Shown one piece after another: positions 15,430 to 26,706 of a stretch of 32,000 bases of DNA. Below the pieces are notes generated by a model. That model had not been told where the DNA came from. It saw nothing but the letters and a program-made list of their open reading frames with translations, and searched no databases. The position numbers and the translations under genes were made by a program. This DNA is from an uncultured Erysipelotrichaceae bacterium (GTDB taxonomy: Bacteria > Bacillota_I > Bacilli_A > Erysipelotrichales > Erysipelotrichaceae): assembly GCA_942493105.1 (NCBI GenBank), contig OW818668.1, forward strand, positions 330,001-362,000, in the 5' to 3' direction. Each line of letters starts with the position of its first letter. Within the stretch, counting starts at the first letter, position 1.

Positions 15430-15774
15430 TCAACGATGAATAATGAATCTGTATTTATGCTTCTTTTGATAAATTCGATAAACGATGTATCCTAAGCAAA
15501 ACCCTAGGCTAATGATCATAATGATCCAATTCTTAGTGAGAAGACTATTGATCGCCAAGGCACCGAAATGAAAGAACATGATGATCAATAAATCAGAGTT
15601 TAGTTTGAGTCGTCGCTTGGGATAGATATACAAGATATACATTCCAATTCCGATAAATTCTAAATCTACGAGCAATTTCCAAAAGTCTTTGTCCATGATG
15701 TTTGAAAACGCTGAATAAAGGAGAAACAAGATTCCAATCCATAAGATTATTCTAGGTAGTTTCTGACGATTCAT
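15430..15774 (-). CDS. Small membrane protein (114 aa), unknown function
   Basis: Four hydrophobic segments. The start lies 2 nt after the upstream permease stop, suggesting translational coupling. Confidence 0.5.
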   Translation of the reverse strand: MNRQKLPRIILWIGILFLLYSAFSNIMDKDFWKLLVDLEFIGIGMYILYIYPKRRLKLNSDLLIIMFFHFGALAINSLLTKNWIIMIISLGFCLGYIVYRIYQKKHKYRFIIHR

Positions 15775-15776
15775 TT

Positions 15777-16316
15777 CTATTTTTCGATTTTCAAAGCACG
15801 TGTATGTATTTCTTCAAGACCTTTGTGACCTAATACTTTTTCACTGATTAAAGCAATGCCCATGATCCCAACTATATTTAAGACAAATCGTGTCACCGTA
15901 AAAGGTAATCCCATCGATGCAGCTTCAAACATCAAAAGAGGAATCTTTGTAGTAGACCATGCACCAATCATAATCAATACATTTCTAAAAGAACTTCCTT
16001 TTTTAAGCAACATCAATGCTACAGGAAATCCTGCATAGAGCGGACCAGCTGCTGCTGAACCCAAGAGGAAAGCCAATAAGATTCCTTTAATTCCACTATC
16101 CTTACCCATTAAGTTGACCATGGTTTCGCGTTTGACCCATACATCCAACAAGCCTAAAAGAATAAATATTGGAGGTAAAACCATTGCCATTTCAGATAAG
16201 CTATTTATCGTTTTTGTAGAACTTGCATCAAACAAATCTTTATTGACAAAGAATAGGACCACATAAACAACGATCAAGATTAGAAATAAACGATATCTTT
16301 TTAGAGTTGTTTTCAT
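15777..16316 (-). CDS. Half-size permease, subunit 2 (PF03773/ArsP-like predicted-permease family)
   Basis: 179 aa. LLGSAAAGPLYAGFPVALMLLKKG is homologous to LGSITLIPGFIAFPLAAALIKSG of the upstream gene. ATGA start/stop overlap at 16313-16316. Confidence 0.6.
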   Translation of the reverse strand: MKTTLKRYRLFLILIVVYVVLFFVNKDLFDASSTKTINSLSEMAMVLPPIFILLGLLDVWVKRETMVNLMGKDSGIKGILLAFLLGSAAAGPLYAGFPVALMLLKKGSSFRNVLIMIGAWSTTKIPLLMFEAASMGLPFTVTRFVLNIVGIMGIALISEKVLGHKGLEEIHTRALKIEK

Positions 16317-16789
16317 TTTAGAATGACCCCCATGATTAAGGCAACAAAAAGAGAAAATAGAAATGCCAATCCATTTCTAAGATAAGCTGCCTTCTTCCCA
16401 AAGAATTTGATTTCCATCGGAAGAGTAACGATGCCTACCATCATTAAGGTCGAAATGAAGGCTGCGATCTGCATATAACCTGCTCCGCTTTTAATCAAAG
16501 CAGCTGCTAAAGGAAATGCTATAAATCCTGGTATTAAGGTAATTGAACCTAAAATCGATGCCAATAAGACGCCAACCCATCCAGAATCTCCTCCAATGAG
16601 TGAAGAGATTTGAGCAGGAGTCAAAATACTTAACACGAAACCAATCAATAATAGAATCGAAAGAAATTGAGGTAAGATATTCTCAAAAGACTTCCAAGCT
16701 TTTTTTAAAGCTTGGATCGTTTTTTCTTTAGACTTAAACCAAGAAAATCCTAATGCAATTGCAGCAATTACGTATACAGCATTATCCAT
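16313..16789 (-). CDS. Half-size permease, subunit 1 (PF03773/ArsP-like predicted-permease family)
   Basis: Start set at ATG 16789 (MDNAVYVIAAIALG...). It overlaps the last codons of the upstream regulator (..CACCATGGATAA). The track's longer start would read through the His-rich tail in another frame. Confidence 0.6.
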   Translation of the reverse strand: MDNAVYVIAAIALGFSWFKSKEKTIQALKKAWKSFENILPQFLSILLLIGFVLSILTPAQISSLIGGDSGWVGVLLASILGSITLIPGFIAFPLAAALIKSGAGYMQIAAFISTLMMVGIVTLPMEIKFFGKKAAYLRNGLAFLFSLFVALIMGVILK

Positions 16790-17510
16790 GGTGATGTCCT
16801 TCGTGGTTGTGTTTGTGTTCATGATTATGATCGCCACAACCAGCACATTCTTGTGCTGTCAAAGAAGTTGTTAAAGTCTTATTGAGATAAGCATCTAATG
16901 CTTCATCAGCTGTTTTATCTTGAGCATCAATACATTGCATGTTAAGTGCAACCAAACGATTATATGCACCTTTTCCCATAGATTTCATGATCAAAACATC
17001 AACACCTTTGTCTTTTAAGAACTGGGGACGTTCTTGATGGACATGCACATCATCATGAATGTCCTCTGTATTCACAACAACATTATTTTCGATTTCTACG
17101 ATTCTGAAATCATTACAATGACCAAAATGCTCAGCTACGTTTTGCCCGTTAAGGCCTATGGCGATTTTCAACTTGTTTTCTCCTGTTTCATGGTTTATTG
17201 AACGTGTGTTTAAAGGTGATTGTTCTACAAAATTGACAGGTCCGCCTTCTATTTCAAGAACTTTTCCCAAAACCAATGCTTGTGCGATCTTGACTCGAGC
17301 ACTGGCATAAATACGTTGTACCGTCGTACGACTGATATTCATGACCGTTGCACAATTTTCTTGACTGAGTCTTTCGAAATCACATTTACGAATGACTTCA
17401 AATTCATCCAGTGATAAAATGATTGAACCGTGTTCACCTGTCTTTTCAGGACTAAATTTACAACAAACCGGTTCTTCCATAATACTTCTAGATTTGAAAG
17501 GTCTTGGCAT
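16782..17510 (-). CDS. DUF134 (UPF0251 HTH) :: NifB/NifX-like cofactor-binding domain fusion with a Cys/His-rich tail; putative regulator
   Basis: N-terminus MPRPFKSR...FSP...LSLDEFEVIR...MNISRTTVQRIYASARVKIAQALVLGK matches DUF134. The middle, KIAIGLNG..VAEHFGHC..F.IVE....DVLIMKSMGKGAYNRL, matches the dinitrogenase FeMo-cofactor-binding fold (NifX/NifB-C). The tail is ECAGCGDHNHEHKHNHEGHHHG. Confidence 0.7.
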   Translation of the reverse strand: MPRPFKSRSIMEEPVCCKFSPEKTGEHGSIILSLDEFEVIRKCDFERLSQENCATVMNISRTTVQRIYASARVKIAQALVLGKVLEIEGGPVNFVEQSPLNTRSINHETGENKLKIAIGLNGQNVAEHFGHCNDFRIVEIENNVVVNTEDIHDDVHVHQERPQFLKDKGVDVLIMKSMGKGAYNRLVALNMQCIDAQDKTADEALDAYLNKTLTTSLTAQECAGCGDHNHEHKHNHEGHHHG

Positions 17511-17520
17511 AGAACTCCTT

Positions 17521-17538
17521 TATGAACATATGTTCATA
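17521..17538. promoter_or_regulatory. Perfect 18-bp palindrome TATGAACATATGTTCATA (operator; core equals the Cheo/LexA box GAAC-N4-GTTC)
   Basis: Seen directly. Starts 3 nt downstream of the -10 element and abuts the AAGGAG RBS of the DUF134-NifX gene. Confidence 0.6.
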
Positions 17539-17541
17539 ACT

Positions 17542-17569
17542 AGTATACATCTCTTTTAAATTAATGCAA
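17542..17569 (-). promoter_or_regulatory. Internal sigma-A-type promoter for the DUF134-NifX/permease genes
   Basis: The minus strand reads TTGCAT (17569-17564), 16-nt spacer, TATACT (17547-17542). Confidence 0.5.
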
Positions 17570-17583
17570 GAAAAAAGAATTGG

Positions 17584-17907
17584 TTATTTAACCAATCCAA
17601 ATTTCCATGATCCAACGCCACCAATATTGTGGACATCTGTATAGCCTGATTTCTTTAGGAAGTCTGTAGCATCACCTGCTCTGGCTCCACTTAAACAGAT
17701 CACAAATATTTTTTGATCTTTATTAGGCAGCATGCCTTGGACTTTTTGAGGCAAGGTATTCAATGGCACATTGACACTGCCTTTGACATGCCCTTCTCTA
17801 AACTCTTCCTTTGTACGCACATCAATCAATTTGATGGTTTTATCTGCCTGAAGCAATTCATAAGCTTTTTCCTGACTAAGATGATTTGATTTGAAGAAAT
17901 TGAACAT
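17584..17907 (-). CDS. Single-domain rhodanese (sulfurtransferase-type)
   Basis: 107 aa. Active-site loop VICLSGARAG (C-X4-R) in a typical rhodanese fold pattern (LIDVRT..EF..GH..G..N.P). Confidence 0.85.
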   Translation of the reverse strand: MFNFFKSNHLSQEKAYELLQADKTIKLIDVRTKEEFREGHVKGSVNVPLNTLPQKVQGMLPNKDQKIFVICLSGARAGDATDFLKKSGYTDVHNIGGVGSWKFGLVK

Positions 17908-17925
17908 GTTGCCCTCGCTTTGTGT

Positions 17926-17936
17926 TGTTCATAACT
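17926..17936. promoter_or_regulatory. Half-site TGTTCATAACT, identical to 17531-17541, upstream of the rhodanese gene
   Basis: An 11-nt exact repeat of one arm plus flank of the 17521-17538 palindrome. The second arm is not conserved. Confidence 0.35.
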
Positions 17937-17943
17937 GCTAACC

Positions 17944-18237
17944 CTATAAACCATTCGACTTTATGAAATCTAATGATCTTTCAACTTTATGTAAGTCGAT
18001 GAATCTGCTCTCACGCAAGATCTCTTTACCTTCCGCAAACACCAATATGGTTGGTACTGTGAAGACACGATGTTGGCCTGAAGTCCATTGATCTTTCGTA
18101 ATGTCGATTTCAATTAAAGGAATGGTATACTCTTTTAAAACTTCTTTTAGTTGAGGTTCTATCGAATGACATACCCCACACTTTTCACTCACGAAACTCA
18201 TCACATAGGATGAGACATCGTGTTGTTTGTTTGTCAA
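17944..18237 (-). CDS. Thioredoxin-fold protein (CGVC active site)
   Basis: 97 aa. VSEKCGVCHS CxxC motif and cis-Pro context FTVPTILVF. Probable TTG start 9 nt after GGAGG. Confidence 0.75.
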   Translation of the reverse strand: MTNKQHDVSSYVMSFVSEKCGVCHSIEPQLKEVLKEYTIPLIEIDITKDQWTSGQHRVFTVPTILVFAEGKEILRESRFIDLHKVERSLDFIKSNGL

Positions 18238-18291: not shown

Positions 18292-18936
18292 CTATAGTGA
18301 TTCAATACTTGATAAGAAGGTTTCGATTGGCTGATTGCCTACCAATTCAATCGTATCATTGATGATGATCTTTGGTACTCCAGAAACATTGTATTTCTCT
18401 GATAGTTCATAGAAAGTTTGAGCTTCAATCATTTCTCCCTCTACATTTTTATTCAGCATGGCCAACAAGTGAGCTTTTTGAACAGCTCCAGGGCAATGCG
18501 GGCAGCTCATGGTCACAAAGACCTTGATGTTGACAGGTTTATCGATCTTCGCAATTCTCGCTGCCAAATCAGCAGGAACGTCACTGATCTCAGAAGACAT
18601 TTCTACCAAAGCAGACAAGAATGAATTGAATTCATGGCCTGCTGGGATCCCATTGAACTTCACCCCTTTATACTGATCATCTTTATCCAATATGATAAAG
18701 CTAGGTGCCATTTCAATGTTGTACTTTTTGGCTTCTTCAACATCTTTGTCTAAATCAAAGTTTAAAACATTTATTTTTTCATTTAGTGCTGCAACTTCAC
18801 TGATAATTTGCTTGGTTGGTTCACAAGATTCACAATCAGTAGCCTTAGTGAATAAAACGATCGTGATCTTGTCTTTCATCGGTTGTAGTAATTCTGTGAC
18901 TTGTTTCTGTAAGTCTTTATTGAGTAGTTTTTCCAT
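18292..18936 (-). CDS. Glutaredoxin-like protein-disulfide oxidoreductase (PDO / AhpF N-terminal-like, two thioredoxin folds)
   Basis: 214 aa with two CxxC motifs (CESC near residue 35, CPHC near residue 145). SGVPKIIIN cis-Pro motif. AAGGAGA RBS. Confidence 0.8.
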   Translation of the reverse strand: MEKLLNKDLQKQVTELLQPMKDKITIVLFTKATDCESCEPTKQIISEVAALNEKINVLNFDLDKDVEEAKKYNIEMAPSFIILDKDDQYKGVKFNGIPAGHEFNSFLSALVEMSSEISDVPADLAARIAKIDKPVNIKVFVTMSCPHCPGAVQKAHLLAMLNKNVEGEMIEAQTFYELSEKYNVSGVPKIIINDTIELVGNQPIETFLSSIESL

Positions 18937-18949
18937 TGTTTGTTTCTCC

Positions 18950-19925
18950 TTAATGGGTATTTAAATATTCATTGGCAGCCAATGCTGCTTTTGCGCCTTC
19001 TGCAGCCGCAATGATGATTTGTTTGTATGGGCTTTGGATCATATCACCTGAAGCATATAATCCCGCACAACTGGTCTTCCCTAGTTCATCCGTGATCACT
19101 TCATTGCGTTCATTGAGATCAACTAAATGTTTGATTAACGATGTGTTTGGAATATTTCCGATTTCGATAAATAAGCCATCACCATCTATTCTTCTTTCGC
19201 TTTGAGTTACTTTATCAAGAACTCTTACACCGCTTAATGCATCTTCTCCAACGATCTCTAGGATCTGAGTTTCAAGATGAACCTTTATTCTTGGATTAGA
19301 CAACATCCTATCGATCAAGACTTGATCAGCTCGCAGCTGACTTCGATGAATCAAAGTAACGCTTTGTGCGACCATAGCCACATCGATGGGCTGCTTCAAC
19401 TGCTGAATTACCACCACCGGCAATCAAGACATCTTTTCCTTTATACAAAGGGGCATCACATATGGCACAATAGGCCACACCTCGATTTGAGTATTCGATT
19501 TCACCTTTGACATTGAGTTTCCTAGGAGTTGAACCCAAGGTTGCAATCAATGTTTTGGATCGATAACTTGTTTTATCGCTCAACATGACTTCAAAGACAT
19601 CTTCTTTCTTATCGATCGATACAACTTCAGCATCCTCTAAGATTGGGACATTTAATTCACTCACGTGACTTCTAAACTTTTCAGCCATCTCTTCACCACT
19701 GATTGAACTTAAACCAAGATAATTTTCAACCAATGAGGTATTCAATAATTGACCGCCTGTTTTTTTTGCGATCATCGCGACCTTACGACCTTTACGAGCT
19801 CCATATAATGCAGCGTTGTATCCTGAAGGTCCACCACCAATGATTAAGATCTCATAGAGTTCACCAGGCTTAGGTTTTATGTTTTGTTTGACTTCTTTAA
19901 GATTAAATCCAAAGTTTAAATCCAT
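18950..19925 (-). pseudogene. trxB: Low-MW thioredoxin-reductase-like flavoprotein, interrupted by a 1-nt frameshift at about 19388-19390
   Basis: Track ORFs 19326..19961 and 18950..19423 are consecutive parts of one gene: IIGGGPSG (FAD), CAICDAPLY (redox CxxC), AGGGNSAVEAA (NAD(P)H), then the frame changes at GCAGCCCATCGAT, continuing IDVAMVAQSVTLIHRS...GLYASGDM. Deleting one C of the CCC run restores the frame. The start at ATG 19925 is preceded by CAGGAGG. Confidence 0.8.
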
Positions 19926-19946
19926 AAGTTCCTCCTGACAACACAC

Positions 19947-19975
19947 ATTATACGGGGACACTTCTTGAATTTCAA
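19947..19975 (-). promoter_or_regulatory. Strong sigma-A-type promoter of the redox operon
   Basis: The minus strand reads TTGAAA (19975-19970), 17-nt spacer, TATAAT (19952-19947). The palindrome CTTGAAtTTCAAG (19964-19976) overlaps the -35. Confidence 0.7.
19954..19970 (-). repeat. 17-nt repeat ATTCAAGAAGTGTCCCC (inverted copy A), filling the promoter spacer
   Basis: 16/17 identical to the plus-strand sequence at 20697-20713, in inverted orientation. Confidence 0.7.
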
Positions 19976-19987
19976 GTGTAATACTAC

Positions 19988-20656
19988 TTATTTGTTTAAA
20001 ATTTTAGATACAGATGATTCACTGATCGAGAATAATTCACCTAATGTCTTTAGTGAACAATTCGTCGTTCTTCTAAACTCCAGGATGCATTGATTTCTCA
20101 TATCTTTGTTTTTCTTCATCATTGTAGGATCACAGCCCTTCTGTTTCATCCAAGATTCAAGTTTTTGGCGTGCTTCATCCAGGTTTATCGAAGATTCTAT
20201 TGAACCAATTTTAATGTTGTGGGGATCTAGATTAATGGTGAAATGATCTGGACGTTTGGCTTCTAGACAGTGAAAACAATAACTGTTGAATTGGCTGTTG
20301 GTTTGTTTTTGTATGCTTTTGATTTCTTGCTGAAGCTGTGTCTCATCGTGTAAAGGCAAACTACTAAACCGTCCAGAAAATAGACGCCCTTCATAACTTC
20401 GATAAGCACTATAAGCTGTAAGCAGAGAAGACATAATGGCTGATATGCTTCTTCCCTTTGTATCAATGATCATTTTAAAAAGATGGTCATCTAAAAGACA
20501 ATAGGCATAACACTCATATCCAAACTTACTTTGGACTTGTTTCATGATCGTAAGCATAGCATTGCGATCATGATCATCTCTATATAAGATTTCTTTTGAT
20601 TTCTGTGTGACAGACAATAAGGTACTGATGTCTGAGTTTCTTGCTTTTCTGGCCAT
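19988..20656 (-). CDS. RayT/IS200-like (Y1 HUH transposase fold) protein with degenerate catalytic motifs and a C-terminal DnaA-domain-IV-like HTH; putative regulator
   Basis: ECYAYCLLDDHLFKMII (the HUH position reads H-L-F). YEGRLFSGRF corresponds to the family's G-H-L-W/F-Q-G-R-F. C-terminus RNQCILEFRRTTNCSLKTLGELFSISESSVSKIL is an HTH. Start set at ATG 20656 after AGAGGA; the track start 20689 lacks an RBS. Confidence 0.6.
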   Translation of the reverse strand: MARKARNSDISTLLSVTQKSKEILYRDDHDRNAMLTIMKQVQSKFGYECYAYCLLDDHLFKMIIDTKGRSISAIMSSLLTAYSAYRSYEGRLFSGRFSSLPLHDETQLQQEIKSIQKQTNSQFNSYCFHCLEAKRPDHFTINLDPHNIKIGSIESSINLDEARQKLESWMKQKGCDPTMMKKNKDMRNQCILEFRRTTNCSLKTLGELFSISESSVSKILNK

Positions 20657-20696
20657 GTTGTTCCTCTTGTTTATCCTATCATATGTCATGGTCCAT

Positions 20697-20713
20697 ATTC
20701 AAGAAATGTCCCC
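20697..20713 (+). repeat. 17-nt repeat ATTCAAGAAATGTCCCC (inverted copy B)
   Basis: 16/17 match to the reverse complement of 19954-19970. Lies in the divergent intergenic region between the RayT-like gene and the ECF sigma gene. Confidence 0.7.
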
Positions 20714-20827
20714 AGGAAATTTAGAATCATTTAGTCACAATCATGTTAAGTCTGCTCTATAGTATAAAGAAAGAATTATTCTATTTGTTTAACATCTAAA
20801 AAAGGAACATTAAGTTATACTAAAACC

Positions 20828-22490: not shown

Positions 22491-22880
22491 TCAGGTCTGA
22501 AGTGTCTTCTGACAATCCTGACAGATTCCTTCAATTTCTAAACGATGACGAATGATTTTATAGCCTTCTATACGATCACTTAAGTGAATGGGACATTCTT
22601 TAAGGATCTTGGTTTGATTGCAGATGACACATTTGATCAAATGATGGGCATGTTCAGATTTTAACACATAGTGCTTTTCTTTGGGTTGAAATTCATCGCT
22701 GATTTCAATCAATTCATTGACTAAAAATGAATCAATGACACGGTAAAGTGTTGCGATGGGAATATCGGGATGTAACTTATACAAATCAGAAACACTGACT
22801 GGGTGATCTAATGTTTTAAAGCTTTCCAGAATTGATATTCGAGCTGAAGTTTTCTTCAGCTGTTTTGGCCAATGATTCAT
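22491..22880 (-). CDS. zur: Fur-family metalloregulator, Zur-like
   Basis: 129 aa. Winged-helix N-terminus, HAHHLIKCVICNQ and CQDC metal-site motifs. Last gene of the znu operon, with an ATGA overlap to znuB. Confidence 0.8.
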   Translation of the reverse strand: MNHWPKQLKKTSARISILESFKTLDHPVSVSDLYKLHPDIPIATLYRVIDSFLVNELIEISDEFQPKEKHYVLKSEHAHHLIKCVICNQTKILKECPIHLSDRIEGYKIIRHRLEIEGICQDCQKTLQT

Positions 22881-23680
22881 ACTCTTCCCTTTCTTAGCGG
22901 TAATAATATCAGATAGGTCGTAACTGCCAACAAGACCACAGCACCACCTGGCTTAACACCTGCATAAAAAGATATAAATAAACCACCAATCATAAAGAAC
23001 AAAGAGAATAAGAAGGCAATGACCAGTGTCGATTTATAGCTTTTCGACAATTGCATGGCCGTTGCGACAGGTAAGATCATTAAAGACGAAAGAATCAAAC
23101 TACCTACTGTTTTAGCCGCAATACTTAATGTAATGCCCAACATGATCATAAAGATCACATTGACCAATTTCACATTGACCCCAGAATGCTGAGCCATGGT
23201 CTCATCAAAAGTCATCGCAAAGATTTCTTTATAGAATATAAAATAAACAATCACCACAATAACCACAACGCCTGTAATCATAATGACTTCAGTCTCACTG
23301 ATGGCCACTATAGACCCAAATAAGAACGCAGAGAAGCGATTGGTATCCCTAACAAATGAAGACAAGGTTCCTGCTAAACCAATCCCCAAAGACATTAAAA
23401 TCGCTATGGCCACATCAGCATAATTTGGTAATCTTCGTCTTAACACATCGATCAAGAACACCCCAATCAATGCAGCCAACATGGCACTGATCAAAGGATC
23501 AATGTTTAGAATAAGTCCAATGGCGACTCCAGCTAAAGTGGTATGAGCTATCGCATCTCCTACCATAGACATACGTTTCAACACAATGGTTTGTCCAATG
23601 AGCGGAGACATCACAGCGACCAAAGCACCAACCCACAAAGCTCGATTCATAAACTCATAGTTAAATATGCTCATGAACAC
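22877..23680 (-). CDS. znuB: Metal (Zn/Mn) ABC transporter permease
   Basis: 267 aa, about 8 TM segments. ABC-3 family pattern (MSMVGDAIAHTTLAGVA). Confidence 0.85.
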   Translation of the reverse strand: MFMSIFNYEFMNRALWVGALVAVMSPLIGQTIVLKRMSMVGDAIAHTTLAGVAIGLILNIDPLISAMLAALIGVFLIDVLRRRLPNYADVAIAILMSLGIGLAGTLSSFVRDTNRFSAFLFGSIVAISETEVIMITGVVVIVVIVYFIFYKEIFAMTFDETMAQHSGVNVKLVNVIFMIMLGITLSIAAKTVGSLILSSLMILPVATAMQLSKSYKSTLVIAFLFSLFFMIGGLFISFYAGVKPGGAVVLLAVTTYLILLPLRKGRV

Positions 23681-24392
23681 CTCCCATATGCGTATGACGA
23701 TGAGCCAGTTCTTCTTCGATTTGAGGCTCGTCTAAAAGTAAGATATCACTTTCACCTAAACAAAAGATACGATCAGAAACTGTCTTAGCCAAAGCCAAAT
23801 CATGCGTGATCATAATGATGGCCATGCCTTCTGCTTGGTAACGCTTTAAGATCGAGAATAGTTTTAATGTAAACTGAGCATCTAAGGCACTGCTGGGTTC
23901 ATCAAGAAACAAAAGCTTGGGCTTCATCAATAAAGCTTTTGCGATAAAAACACGTTGCCTTTGACCACCAGACAAAGCTGATAATTGGGTATGGATTTCT
24001 TGACCTAAACCCATTTCTTCAAGGATCACTTTAGCAGCCAACACATGTTTCTTTTGAGGACGTTTAAATAAACCCAGAAGCGGTGTAAAGGCTCCCATCA
24101 CGACTTCAAGTGCAGTTGCAGGGAATGCTTCATGCTGACTAAACTCGTGCTGACCGACGTATATGCGTTCATAGGGTTTTAAAGGCAAACCTGACTCAGG
24201 ATCAAATAAAGATACTTGTCCTTGTTGAGCTTTGATCAATTGAGCCAGAACTTTTAAAAGCGTTGTTTTTCCTGTCCCATTGTTACCAATGATCCCAATC
24301 CATTCATGCTTACTGACACTTAACGAGAAATCTTTAAAAAGAATTTTCCCTGGATAAGCATATGAAATTTTATCAGCAATCAGTATGTTCAT
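23661..24392 (-). CDS. znuC: Metal ABC transporter ATP-binding protein
   Basis: Walker A GNNGTGKTT, signature LSGGQRQR, Walker B LLFLDEP. His-rich C-terminus HRHTHMGGVHEH. Confidence 0.9.
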   Translation of the reverse strand: MNILIADKISYAYPGKILFKDFSLSVSKHEWIGIIGNNGTGKTTLLKVLAQLIKAQQGQVSLFDPESGLPLKPYERIYVGQHEFSQHEAFPATALEVVMGAFTPLLGLFKRPQKKHVLAAKVILEEMGLGQEIHTQLSALSGGQRQRVFIAKALLMKPKLLFLDEPSSALDAQFTLKLFSILKRYQAEGMAIIMITHDLALAKTVSDRIFCLGESDILLLDEPQIEEELAHRHTHMGGVHEHI

Positions 24393-24393
24393 G

Positions 24394-25278
24394 TTAGTTC
24401 AGCGCTTTCTTGAGCCATTGTAAATTCTGTCTCATGATCGATAAGAAATCATCTCCAGCTGCAATCTGCTGATCATTTAGAGATTCACCAGGTCTCAATA
24501 CACCTGTCAAAGCACCTGTTTCAGCAGCAATCGTATTCGCAACTTGCGTATTCGCATCATCTTCATAGAGTATATAAGGAATCTTGTATTGTTTAACGAT
24601 GTCTATGATTTGTGCCATGACAGATGCATCAGGTTCAGCATCTGGTTCTATTCCCATAATGGGAATCATAGTGAGACCATAATCTTGGGCTAAGTAACCA
24701 AAAGCCGCATGATTGACTACAAATTCATCCCTGACTCTGTTTTTTATAGTATCTTCAAATTCTTGATCAAGGGCTTCGAATTCAGCCTTAGCATCTAAAT
24801 AATTGGCTTCATATTCAGCTTTGTGATTTGGATCGATTCGAACAAGATAATTTCTGATCGTATTAAGTATCAACACATCATTTTTTAAACTAGTCCAAAT
24901 ATGCGGATCAATTTGATTTGTAGATTCATTAATGATGGTTGAGATACCTTGTGATACCACAAGGACTTCTTGGCCCTTATGATAGATCGTCTTTGAAACA
25001 TCATCAAACCAAGGTTCAAAATGATTCCCTAAAATAAAAATGTGATCAGCTTTACTTAAGGTCACCATATCTTTGGTTGATGGTTCGTAATCATGTGGTT
25101 CACCAGCAATAGGCAATAAATTTGTAATGCTCACATAGTCACCACCTATACGTTGAGTCAAATATTCCAATACATAAAAACTAACAACGATCTTTATTTT
25201 TTGATCATTTTCATTATTTTTTGGTGTACATGCACTTAAGGAACTGACAAGTAAGATTAGTATAAGGAGTTTTTTCAT
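24394..25278 (-). CDS. znuA: Metal ABC transporter substrate-binding lipoprotein (cluster A-I, ZnuA/AdcA-like)
   Basis: Start at ATG 25278 gives the lipoprotein signal MKKLLILILLVSSLSAC. GEPHDYEPS and DPHIW metal-ligand motifs. Confidence 0.85.
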   Translation of the reverse strand: MKKLLILILLVSSLSACTPKNNENDQKIKIVVSFYVLEYLTQRIGGDYVSITNLLPIAGEPHDYEPSTKDMVTLSKADHIFILGNHFEPWFDDVSKTIYHKGQEVLVVSQGISTIINESTNQIDPHIWTSLKNDVLILNTIRNYLVRIDPNHKAEYEANYLDAKAEFEALDQEFEDTIKNRVRDEFVVNHAAFGYLAQDYGLTMIPIMGIEPDAEPDASVMAQIIDIVKQYKIPYILYEDDANTQVANTIAAETGALTGVLRPGESLNDQQIAAGDDFLSIMRQNLQWLKKALN

Positions 25279-25288
25279 CGCAACCTCT

Positions 25289-25309
25289 AAATGATATTGA
25301 TTATCATTT
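25289..25309. promoter_or_regulatory. Zur/Fur-type box: 21-bp palindrome AAATGATA-N5-TATCATTT
   Basis: 8-bp perfect arms. Starts 2 nt downstream of the -10 and covers the expected transcription start of znuA. Confidence 0.7.
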
Positions 25310-25311
25310 GC

Positions 25312-25340
25312 ATTATAAACCGCGGAACAAAATACATCAA
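25312..25340 (-). promoter_or_regulatory. Sigma-A-type promoter of the znuACB-zur operon
   Basis: The minus strand reads TTGATG (25340-25335), 17-nt spacer, TATAAT (25317-25312). Confidence 0.6.
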
Positions 25341-25485
25341 GTGTAATACCTACTGTCAACTTAAAATGAATTGATAGGTTAAGATTGATTAATGACGTAT
25401 TTATGTCTTGTAACCTTCTGTTAAAATGGGTTCTAATCTTACACAGATATATCTACATATGTTGCCCACAAAGAGTACAATAAAC

Positions 25486-25514
25486 TTGCGTATATTTAGT
25501 ATATTTTGTAAAAT
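25486..25514 (+). promoter_or_regulatory. Candidate promoter of the GGDEF gene
   Basis: TTGCGT, 17-nt spacer, TAAAAT; followed by GGAGG at 25527-25531. Confidence 0.35.
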
Positions 25515-25536
25515 AGAAGGTGCTTTGGAGGTACTT

Positions 25537-26706
25537 GTGGACTTAACTACCAATATTGTATTGAATACCTATTCAATCATCATATTATTTGTTTTGTTTT
25601 TTCACTCTCTTAAGCAAAGTGATAAAAACTCTCTTAAATATAAACTCTTTCTAAGTATCATTGTTGCTACAATGATCACTTTGTTATTTGATTCTTTAGC
25701 ACGGCTTGATGGTTACCCAGAGACAATCTTTCCAATATTGAATCGTATGGGAAACTTTATCATTTTCTTGATTGCACCCGTACTTCCATCAATCTGGGTC
25801 CTTTATGTCCATGATGAGATCTTTCATGCTGTTTCTAAAACCAAGAAATTAGTTTTACCGCTCTTTATGATTTTTGGGTTCAATGCAGTGCTTTTGATTT
25901 TATCTCAATTTACACACTGGTATTATTTTATTGATGCCCAGAATATTTATAAGCGTGGTCCATTCTATTTTGTATCAGCTTTGTTTACTATTTTATTAAT
26001 GCTCATTGCCTTCATCATGATTGTTAAAAACAAAAAGGTGATTGATAAAAAGCACTATAATGGATTGATTCTGTTTGCAGCTCCTCCTTTTATAGCAATC
26101 ATTATCTCGATTATTTTCTATGGACTTTCATTGATGCTCAATAGTCTCGTCTTATCTATTTTGATCTTAGCCCTCTATATTCAAAACCAAGATATCAACA
26201 CCGATTATTTAACGAAAATCAACAATCGTAAACGTCTTGATCAATATATTGAAGAGAAGATCAAGATGAGTTCTAAAGGCAGAACATTTTCAATCATCAT
26301 GATTGATATAGATAACTTTAAAAGTATCAATGATCGCTTAGGCCATGATATGGGAGATCAAGTCCTGAAGGATACAGCTCAACTTCTTAAATCATGCATA
26401 CGATCTGTGGACTTCGTAGGTCGTTATGGAGGAGATGAGTTTTATATCGTTTTAGATATCTCGCAAAGAAGCGAACTCATGATCGTTGTAGACCGTATCC
26501 AACACAAACTTGAAGAGTATAATACAAAACACCAACTTCCCTATCAATTGGTCATAAGTATGGGTCTTGACATCTATGATCCATCCTCCAAAATGTCCGT
26601 CGAGGAATTTCAAAAACATATTGACCAACTCATGTATCAGAATAAAAGAGCCAATCAAATGAATAATATGAATTCTAATTTATCAAAAGAAGCCAGTATT
26701 CAGTAA
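25537..26706 (+). CDS. Membrane-bound diguanylate cyclase (polytopic N-terminal sensor + GGDEF domain with I-site)
   Basis: RYGGDEF active site, with RSVD five residues upstream (the RxxD I-site). About 8 TM segments N-terminally. The preferred start is GTG 25537, 5 nt after GGAGG; the track start at ATG 25426 lacks an RBS. Confidence 0.85.
   Translation: MDLTTNIVLNTYSIIILFVLFFHSLKQSDKNSLKYKLFLSIIVATMITLLFDSLARLDGYPETIFPILNRMGNFIIFLIAPVLPSIWVLYVHDEIFHAVSKTKKLVLPLFMIFGFNAVLLILSQFTHWYYFIDAQNIYKRGPFYFVSALFTILLMLIAFIMIVKNKKVIDKKHYNGLILFAAPPFIAIIISIIFYGLSLMLNSLVLSILILALYIQNQDINTDYLTKINNRKRLDQYIEEKIKMSSKGRTFSIIMIDIDNFKSINDRLGHDMGDQVLKDTAQLLKSCIRSVDFVGRYGGDEFYIVLDISQRSELMIVVDRIQHKLEEYNTKHQLPYQLVISMGLDIYDPSSKMSVEEFQKHIDQLMYQNKRANQMNNMNSNLSKEASIQ

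Follow-up and report, generated by a model that had tools for sequence, protein, structure and literature searches.

What becomes of a RayT-like transposase gene that has lost the means to cut DNA and yet stays enclosed by two inverted repeats, one of which lies in the promoter of a thiol-redox operon? This question is raised by a 32,000-nt stretch of DNA from an uncultured Erysipelotrichaceae bacterium (contig OW818668.1, positions 330,001 to 362,000; hereafter the window), in which the minus-strand gene at 19988..20656 is bracketed at a fixed distance by 17-nt terminal inverted repeats (TIRs). An earlier note on this DNA had offered three readings, namely a domesticated transposase that regulates from two operators, a REPtron-like relic, and an invertible segment. 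Our comparative analysis places the gene in a monophyletic clade of TIRYT-type proteins that, judging from their sequences, is catalytically dead and under purifying selection. The reading that we favour, and hold to be somewhat probable, is that this domesticated TIRYT serves as an autoregulated repressor of the thiol-redox operon, with operators derived from the TIRs.

The gene and its clade

The gene and the domains of its product are as follows.
19988..20656, minus strand: gene of a catalytically degenerate TIRYT/RayT-like protein of 222 aa (open reading frame (ORF) and homologue starts, AlphaFold2 (AF2)/Foldseek, ratio of nonsynonymous to synonymous substitution rates (dN/dS))
222-aa protein: Y1 HUH fold at residues ~10-116, Cys-containing linker at ~117-158 (C127, C130), and C-terminal helix-turn-helix (HTH) at ~159-222 (..SISESSVSKIL)

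The start MARKAR is common to the window protein and all its homologues, and a good Shine-Dalgarno (SD) sequence stands before the ATG at 20656. A longer ORF from 20689 was rejected as the gene, as the homologues all begin at MARKAR. To place the gene among its relatives, we used a degenerate-pattern scan with one genome per species, which gave 39 loci (WIN is the window locus, and L numbers are related loci), 38 of them linked to a thioredoxin-reductase-like (TrxR-like) gene and one from Desulforamulus (L041).

Profile searches with the window protein gave low scores. Pfam Y1_Tnp (PF01797) reached 19.1 bits, below the gathering threshold of 23, and matched 13 of 18 family members at E<=1 (best 7.8e-6), while NCBIfam REP_Tyr_transpos (NF047646, RAYT/TnpA_REP) gave 22.4 bits against a cut-off of 80, with the Y---NP context also missing. 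A direct sequence search of the PDB returned nothing useful. The fold was established by AF2 and Foldseek, the model being built from an 18-sequence family alignment (pLDDT 73). Here, the N-terminal domain runs beta-alpha-beta-beta-alpha-beta-alpha, as in the Y1 transposase fold (beta-alpha-beta-beta-alpha-beta plus a C-terminal helix), and the top 22 PDB matches were ISDra2, IS608, and Sulfolobus IS200 TnpA together with E. coli RayT (4er8), at probability 1.0 and a TM (target) of 0.5-0.6. This bears out the Y1/RayT-like N-terminus that had been proposed from sequence patterns.

As for the catalytic residues, hhalign against E. coli RayT (MG1655) set H58-L59-F60 opposite H-M-H and S114 opposite the catalytic Y115, although this single-template alignment is not significant (probability 0.2, E 0.27) and fixes the register only. 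The H-L-F triad read earlier by eye is the same as in this register, whereas MAFFT shifts the HUH by one, to L-F-K. Profile alignment had been run as a check for an intact HUH and Tyr, and neither was found; in either register, the HUH of the window protein is incomplete and the Tyr is missing, as the earlier note had surmised. Moreover, a complete HUH (both His) and Tyr occur in none of the 38 TrxR-linked proteins (hhalign, MAFFT), and the Tyr-equivalent position is S, L, A, E, K, or M, never Y, with the NP missing too. In contrast, the sampled intact relatives all keep NHVHL and RYIHLNP.

The C-terminal ~60 residues form a helical HTH with weak Pfam matches to Sigma70_r4, HTH_Tnp_4, and HTH_3, and a PDB profile search matched it weakly to region 4 of FliA/WhiG (E 0.07). 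PF08299 (Bac_DnaA_C) had no match at E<=1 in 18 family members, while some intact relatives with the same ..SESSVSKIL end carry it. The HTH thus seems closest to sigma-70 region 4, and the DnaA-domain-IV likeness claimed for it earlier did not hold up directly; the label is justified only indirectly, via those PF08299-bearing relatives. Between the two domains, C127 is present in 82% of the dead clade versus 8% of the intact proteins, and CxxC pairs are variable, with C127-x2-C130 found in the window protein.

An HMM search of 1.84 billion protein representatives gave about 80 best hits without the HUH and Tyr motifs, after which the intact proteins follow. This dead clade comprises ~75 clusters at 50% identity, from Erysipelotrichaceae and several Clostridia orders, and in a neighbour-joining tree the TrxR-linked proteins form one clade, sister to the intact HTH-bearing TIRYTs (HTH-TIRYTs). 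Pairwise dN/dS within the clade is 0.05-0.13 where dS is unsaturated, and the ORFs are full length in the 38 loci, which together argue against a pseudogene. In fact, although dS is saturated between WIN and L004 (84% identical), one of the two 17-mers is unchanged and the other differs at a single base; being conserved where synonymous sites are saturated, they are more than mere relics. In the literature searched, including transposase-TrxR links and RAYT-derived transcription factors, we found no description of an operon-linked catalytically dead TIRYT clade.

Promoters, motif, and redox operon

The two repeats and the promoters on which they lie in the window are listed below.
20697..20713, minus strand: TIR and putative operator 1 (copy B); the gene-strand reading is GGGGACATTTCTTGAAT, the last six bases of which, TTGAAT (20702-20697), form the -35 of the gene's own promoter
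20673..20681, minus strand: extended -10 TGATAGGAT of the gene's own promoter, 18 nt downstream of TTGAAT (read from the sequence)
19954..19970, minus strand: TIR and putative operator 2 (copy A), ATTCAAGAAGTGTCCCC in the TrxR-operon direction
19947..19975, minus strand: near-consensus sigma-A-type promoter of the redox operon, TTGAAA (19975-19970), 17 nt, and TATAAT (19952-19947), 11/12

On the minus strand, 19954-19970 reads ATTCAAGAAGTGTCCCC, and on the plus strand, 20697-20713 reads ATTCAAGAAATGTCCCC; the two are inverted and 16/17 identical, exactly as first reported. These are the only 17-mer matches in the 32 kb at <=3 mismatches. Shuffled controls gave two or more matches in 5 of 100 cases, and another inverted repeat, 20 nt at 85%, lies within the same 1.1 kb. 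Judged on the window alone, the 17-mer repeat is unremarkable, and it is the comparison with other loci that gives it significance. Of the chance argument made earlier, the expectation of similar-quality repeats nearby therefore stood, while the match between the two intergenic regions is not exceptional within the window.

Copy A covers the last -35 base and 16 of the 17 spacer bases of the redox-operon promoter, such that the claim that it exactly fills the spacer was off by one. Copy B had been assigned to the divergent region shared with a sigma gene, but its main role appears to be a different one, as it holds the -35 of the gene's own promoter. There, the -10 is followed by the SD AGAGGA and the ATG at 20656; this promoter scores 8/12, under the threshold of a simple scanner, and its -10 is weak (TAGGAT). 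With both copies placed ahead of their -10 boxes, neither is part of a transcript from these promoters, for which reason an RNA-level role was rejected for the window. The window 17-mers gave no hairpin fold signal (z about 0 to 1), and an Rfam scan of the window gave no match. Also rejected were a hairpin or REP nature of the window 17-mers, which are without the fold signal of some intact-TIRYT TIRs, and an antisense promoter from the downstream copy, as there is no -10 at the right distance.

The 38 related loci, in which protein identity reaches down to 28%, come from Erysipelotrichaceae and Clostridia (Vallitaleaceae, Fusibacter, Acidaminobacteraceae, Peptostreptococcales, Tindallia, Fastidiosipila, and Oscillospiraceae). 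The comparison that the earlier note had called for proved informative, as the motif NTTCAAG-N4-GTCCC lies upstream of the gene, and antisense to it, in all 38 non-Desulforamulus loci. With a limit of 150 nt from the gene and <=1 mismatch of the 12 specified bases, it was recovered in 37 of the 38, versus 1 of 780 shuffles; the single miss, L021, is a start-codon artefact, with a motif copy at -48. The TTCAAG and GTCCC blocks carry ~2 bits per position and the flanks ~0. Read in the gene direction, the motif is GGGGAC-N4-CTTGAAT, and in 28 of the 38 loci a TAnnnT hexamer, usually TATACT or TATAAT, comes 17-18 nt after its TTGAxx. This spacing indicates that the -35 of the regulator gene's own promoter is part of the motif.

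The genes on the other side of copy A are the following.
18950..19928, minus strand: TrxR-like flavoprotein, first operon gene, starting MDLNFGF (Pfam Pyr_redox_2 on both halves)
18292..18936, minus strand: protein with two thioredoxin folds (PDO/glutaredoxin-like, Thioredoxin_3), second gene (Pfam; tblastn in nearly all loci)
16782..18237, minus strand: further co-directional redox-cluster genes, with thioredoxin at 17944-18237, rhodanese at 17584-17907, and a DUF134-NifX-like fusion at 16782-17510 (Pfam)

According to tblastn with the window neighbours, a TrxR-like and/or PDO gene adjoins the regulator gene in 38/38 loci. The TrxR-like gene is directly downstream in nearly all of them, and the PDO gene is the most constant partner; the thioredoxin, rhodanese, and DUF134-NifX genes are kept only in the nearer relatives within the Erysipelotrichaceae. 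Ahead of the TrxR-like or PDO gene, 27 of 37 loci have the motif a second time, inverted (<=2 mismatches of 12). Loci with an intergenic gap of <=35 nt, in which the genes are evidently a single operon, mostly lack this copy. In all 17 Erysipelotrichaceae-type loci, the downstream copy takes the same promoter-spacer position as in the window, and the architecture cTTGAA-ATTCAAGnnGTGTCCCyg-TATAAT/TATGAT/TATACT is kept in WIN and L004-L018. The motif position varies by lineage, and it is found over the -35, in the spacer, shortly before the SD, or right against the ATG.

More conspicuously, in the rearranged locus L029 the regulator gene, which keeps its own motif copy, is separated by 1.7 kb from a TrxR/PDO operon that runs on the opposite strand. 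In the minus-strand reading of L029 6340-6460, the TrxR promoter is GGGGACGGTACTTGAAT-17-TATAAT, with the motif over the -35, and 49 bp further ATTCAAGAAGTGTCCCC stands just before the ribosome-binding site. Having such a pair at the TrxR promoter implies that the motif belongs to the target promoter rather than to the 3' end of the regulator gene. The pair itself, inverted, only 49 bp apart, and with no gene between, looks like a gene-less TIR pair, and it hints at two-operator (looping) control.

The reading with two operators is thus the best supported of the three, by way of synteny, promoter motif positions, and purifying selection, but its proposed partner has to be exchanged. To the right of the gene, and divergent from it, are an ECF-type sigma factor and an anti-sigma factor with an RsgI_M domain. 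This sigma/RsgI pair adjoins the gene only in WIN and L001-L007, for which reason coupling to the ECF sigma was rejected; the upstream neighbours in the other loci are unrelated and mostly co-directional. The partners would instead be the TrxR-like/PDO operon and the gene's own promoter.

Some further features were noticed around these sites. In a subgroup of the Erysipelotrichaceae (L013-L018), a rhodanese gene and a terminator-like hairpin precede the upstream motif, with no space left for a normal promoter or SD; the TATAAT that overlaps the motif in L016, 6 nt before the ATG, suggests that the mRNA is leaderless there. In L026, L028, L032, L033, L037, and L038 (Fusibacter/Acidaminobacteraceae-type), the upstream motif is one arm of a palindrome with 16-bp arms, GTACCGCCCCGTAAAT ... 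ATTTACGGGGACGGTAC, ~60 nt upstream of the motif and immediately past a gene for an ABC-transporter ATPase; a terminator, a second half-site, and a REP-like remnant are all conceivable. In the window (20714-20827) and in L004, L005, and L010, an element ..tt(t/c)GTC(T/A)aa.. lies ~20-25 nt past copy B, towards the ECF sigma gene, and resembles an ECF-type -10 (CGTC-like); the scanner also gives GTCACA-18-TATAGT at 20734-20763.

As regards the wider window, an extra C at ~19390 (GCAGCCCATCG in the window, GCAG-CCATTG in L004) breaks the TrxR-like gene into two ORFs that overlap, with the orthologue intact (324 aa) in L001 and L004. Either a homopolymer was misread in sequencing, or the gene for the operon's central enzyme is genuinely a pseudogene. 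Downstream of the DUF134-NifX gene (15430-16846, minus strand) are two half-size ArsP_1 'predicted permease' ORFs of 177 and 179 aa that overlap by 4 nt, a split pair also kept in L001, and small unannotated ORFs come after. At 22491-25359 (minus strand), a Fur-family regulator (129 aa) is followed by an ABC permease, an ABC ATPase, and a ZnuA-like binding protein, which is likely a Zur-controlled zinc uptake operon, and at 25426-26706 (plus strand) there is a 7TM-GGDEF diguanylate cyclase.

Origin of the repeats

TIRtrons, in which a TIRYT gene is flanked by TIRs with the consensus GGGGWSAS, were described by Di Nocera et al. 2013 (PMC3733652), and TIRYT was later equated with TnpA_REP subclass 2.1, the members of which have C-terminal HTH domains (Quentin et al. 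2018, PMC6006769). HUH and Tyr are stated as conserved in all TIRYTs (PMC3733652, PMC6006769), and Quentin et al. removed proteins without the core motifs as presumably non-functional (PMC6006769).

Locus L041, from Desulforamulus putei, encodes a 280-aa protein with the same HTH in which NHVHL and RYIHLNP are intact. A search with this protein returned at least 3970 relatives of ~275 aa, annotated as RayT or IS200 transposases, some with PF08299 or PF04545. The ..G(L/I)SESSVSKIL end is common to the dead-clade and the intact 275-aa proteins, and the HMM search links both groups. In eight intact loci, from Desulforamulus, Sporomusa, Anaerovirgula, Herbivorax, Thermoanaerobacteraceae, and metagenome-assembled genomes, the core AAGAACCGTCCC(C/T) overlaps the -35 region of the gene's promoter, and in most of them the core AAGAACCGTCCCC recurs downstream, inverted, and sometimes in several copies. 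Moreover, the outer end of the repeats agrees with GGGGWSAS at 8/8 positions in copy A (GGGGACAC), and at 7/8 in copy B (GGGGACAT) and in the Clostridial form (GGGGACGG). The same core in intact relatives, together with this fit, identifies the repeats as the TIRs of the published TIRtron/TIRYT arrangement. With its HUH and Tyr lost, the window gene is a derived, non-catalytic offshoot of the TIRYTs and not a regular member. That the upstream TIR contains the gene's -35 across the whole HTH-TIRYT family is noted in neither PMC3733652 nor PMC6006769.

In Desulforamulus and several other intact loci, each copy is a stem-loop with the 13-mer AAGAACCGTCCCC as its loop (delta-G to -19.7, z to -6.8). 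The stem arms are lineage-specific but complementary, being AATTCAAGTC/GACTTGAATT, GGCAAG/CTTGCC, and AATTCACATC/GATGTGAATT (L041 2500-6850; L047 8860-13170; L049, L050, and L052). As an observation on these intact HTH-TIRYT loci, several hairpin copies occur on both gene sides in opposite orientation, and in Desulforamulus they also enclose a RecQ helicase gene. The motif-flanked genes in this genus are MutY-like and RecQ, and in Sporomusa acidovorans (L044 10832-10880) a degenerate downstream copy, GTTGAGAACCGTCCCT, lies ~25 nt before a DNA_binding_1 (MGMT/Ogt-like) gene; intact TIRYTs may therefore sit next to DNA-repair genes. The TIRYT of D. putei DSM 12395 has an apparent N-terminal frameshift (L041 3897-4010; MPRIPRLK.. 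versus ..GEYCTYHVIQRG.. in the other frame), and its orthologue in D. profundi is intact (281 aa).

Given this homology to the TIRtrons of intact TIRYTs (PMC3733652), the window locus might be taken for an inert TIRtron or REPtron relic, that is, a decaying transposase with its 17-mers as leftover ends that happen to lie near promoters, and proteins lacking HuH and Y were indeed treated as non-functional and excluded by the authors of the HUH survey (PMC6006769). The REPtron-like reading had the origin right insofar as the repeats are TIRs, but as a mere relic it is at odds with the low dN/dS, the full-length ORFs across 38 loci and ~75 clusters, and repeats that are kept where synonymous sites are saturated. 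The motif is also retained while its flanks are randomised, the TrxR/PDO synteny is strict across Bacillota classes, and in L029 the motif moves with the TrxR promoter. By these selection and synteny data, the relic reading seems largely refuted, and we regard it as highly improbable.

Alternatively, the repeats might still be substrates for recombination or transposition, with an intact TIRYT or another enzyme acting in trans, or might delimit a 760-bp invertible promoter switch, as the third of the earlier readings had it. Inverted 17-mers do bracket the gene, hairpin copies cluster around the intact TIRYT of D. putei (5 in 8.8 kb), in keeping with past mobility, and L029 has its TIR pair with no gene between. 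Yet the window protein is without the catalytic Tyr or HUH, no recombinase is among the annotated window ORFs, the dead-clade sites form no hairpins (z about 0), and only two copies are present in the 32 kb. Moreover, 37 of the 38 loci agree in how the gene and the TrxR operon are oriented to each other, as do all assemblies and contigs of the closest relative, while in L029 the motif accompanies the TrxR promoter. The invertible segment finds no support here, and we give this family of explanations almost no weight.

A further possibility is that the 17-mer is read by another factor, or acts as RNA, and that the dead transposase has an unrelated role. The link between protein and motif is, after all, drawn from sequence comparison, and in some Clostridia the downstream copy would fall in the 5' UTR. 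Against this, the motif goes with this protein family in its intact and dead forms alike, in Erysipelotrichales, Clostridia, Desulfotomaculia, and Negativicutes and irrespective of the neighbouring genes, and with the window copies upstream of their -10 boxes, no Rfam match, and no fold signal of the copies, we deem this explanation improbable.

A proposed repressor with TIR-derived operators, and its known relatives

Returning to the autoregulated repressor, we envisage that the protein keeps the Y1 fold, the C-terminal HTH, and the two TIRs, DNA cutting having been lost, and that the TIRs have turned into operators, one over its own -35 and the upstream flank and the other in the spacer of the TrxR-like/PDO promoter. 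The protein would bind the bipartite sequence GGGGAC-N4-CTTGAAT. Since its two invariant blocks are one helical turn (~10-11 bp) apart, two DNA-binding surfaces or subunits with adjacent major-groove contacts are suggested; the HTH might read the -35-like TTGAAT, with GGGGAC left to the Y1 domain or to a second subunit. Once bound, the protein would keep RNA polymerase off both promoters and so repress them, and the conserved sites do overlap core promoter elements of both the own and the target genes. Y1 transposases are dimers that hold both ends, which makes a bridging of the two inverted sites by the protein plausible. We conjecture that repression would be released by thiol oxidation, or by an altered metal or cluster, at the cysteines specific to the clade (C127, which in the window protein is part of a CxxC), a signal in keeping with the regulated genes.

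The same protein-operator pair might, alternatively, work as an activator or dual regulator. Here, the sigma-region-4-like HTH over and upstream of the -35 would recruit RNA polymerase or replace its contacts at the own promoter, and the inverted copy would modulate the redox operon. This would suit the motif at the own promoter, which covers the -35 to about -46, the position of a class II activator, as well as the weak -10 (TAGGAT) and an HTH closest to sigma-70 region 4, a reader of -35 elements. It fits poorly with the redox-operon site, which lies in the spacer of a promoter that, at 11/12, can do without activation, and with a site position and orientation that vary by lineage (spacer, pre-SD, or abutting the ATG), as is rarely tolerated by activators. 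We prefer repression because the redox-operon site sits in the spacer of a near-consensus promoter, and because differences in site position and orientation between lineages are typical of repressor sites; activation seems to us unlikely, though it is an explanation to be taken seriously.

Several points weigh against a repressor. The reading rests entirely on comparative genomics, and the count of motif copies within the source genome covers the 32-kb window only. The motif's extension upstream from the -35 is, as said, also compatible with a class II activator. Ten TrxR-bearing loci are without the second motif, and in three of these the gaps are 43-131 nt. In several Clostridia, 6-30 nt separate the downstream motif from the start codon and no promoter can be recognised nearby; control there might be by roadblock or read-through. 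In L013-L018 the upstream motif abuts the ATG (1-10 nt) with no standard promoter seen. Finally, if the TrxR frameshift is real, the regulated enzyme would be defective in this strain.

A bolder extension of the repressor reading is that the whole dead clade was exapted as a Cys-dependent redox-responsive repressor, its TIRs having become TrxR/PDO operators with possible two-site bridging, and that, in the intact HTH-TIRYTs as well, of which there are thousands, the upstream TIR is an autoregulatory operator over the -35. This we offer tentatively, as a possibility that is more doubtful than not; if true, it would give a domesticated transposase of the RAYT type a concrete cellular function for the first time.

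The host role of 'domesticated' transposases of the RAYT/TIRYT type has been an open question since their first description, and published surveys either assume a DNA-editing activity or discard members without catalytic motifs. A clade that appears unable to cut DNA, and yet is strongly kept with its repeats and one operon, offers a directly testable function, that of a thiol-redox regulator in anaerobic Bacillota. If true, this would also be a clean bacterial case of a transposase and its ends co-opted as transcription factor and cis-elements, a route that is well documented in eukaryotes.

Of the known systems, the TIRYT/TIRtron is the closest, with which the window locus shares the RayT-like Y1 fold and C-terminal HTH, the single copy, the inverted repeats at fixed distance, and the GGGGWSAS outer end (PMC3733652; PMC6006769); the core motif recurs in intact members to which the window clade is directly homologous. 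In contrast to the published TIRYTs, which keep the HUH and Tyr, the window clade has lost both; it is also ~50 aa shorter, with the Y--NP...WSSY region lost and a conserved Cys gained, and it is locked in TrxR-like/PDO synteny, with non-hairpin TIRs that coincide with promoter elements. The RAYT/REP system (REPtron) of E. coli and Pseudomonas (PDB 4er8; Bertels et al. 2017, PMC5581495) has in common with it the fold and a single-copy, vertically inherited 'domesticated' transposase with inverted cognate repeats. There are, however, no GTAG-tagged REP hairpins at the window gene, only two repeat copies occur in the 32 kb, the catalytic centre is missing, and an HTH is added. While the TnpA proteins of IS200/IS605 (IS608, ISDra2) provide the best structural matches for the N-terminal domain, and are likewise dimeric Y1 proteins that recognise their ends by sequence- and structure-specific binding, the window element is not an insertion sequence, lacks the HUH/Tyr and the subterminal hairpins, and is not multi-copy.

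Thioredoxin-system genes of Bacillota are under thiol-based or redox-responsive repressors of the PerR, Rex, and YodB/HypR type. With these, the window protein has an unrelated fold, origin, and operator sequence, and its sensing is conjectural. Nonetheless, the arrangement that we propose for it would be the same as theirs, namely an autoregulated repressor, an operator over a strong thiol-redox promoter, and a conserved Cys as the possible sensor.

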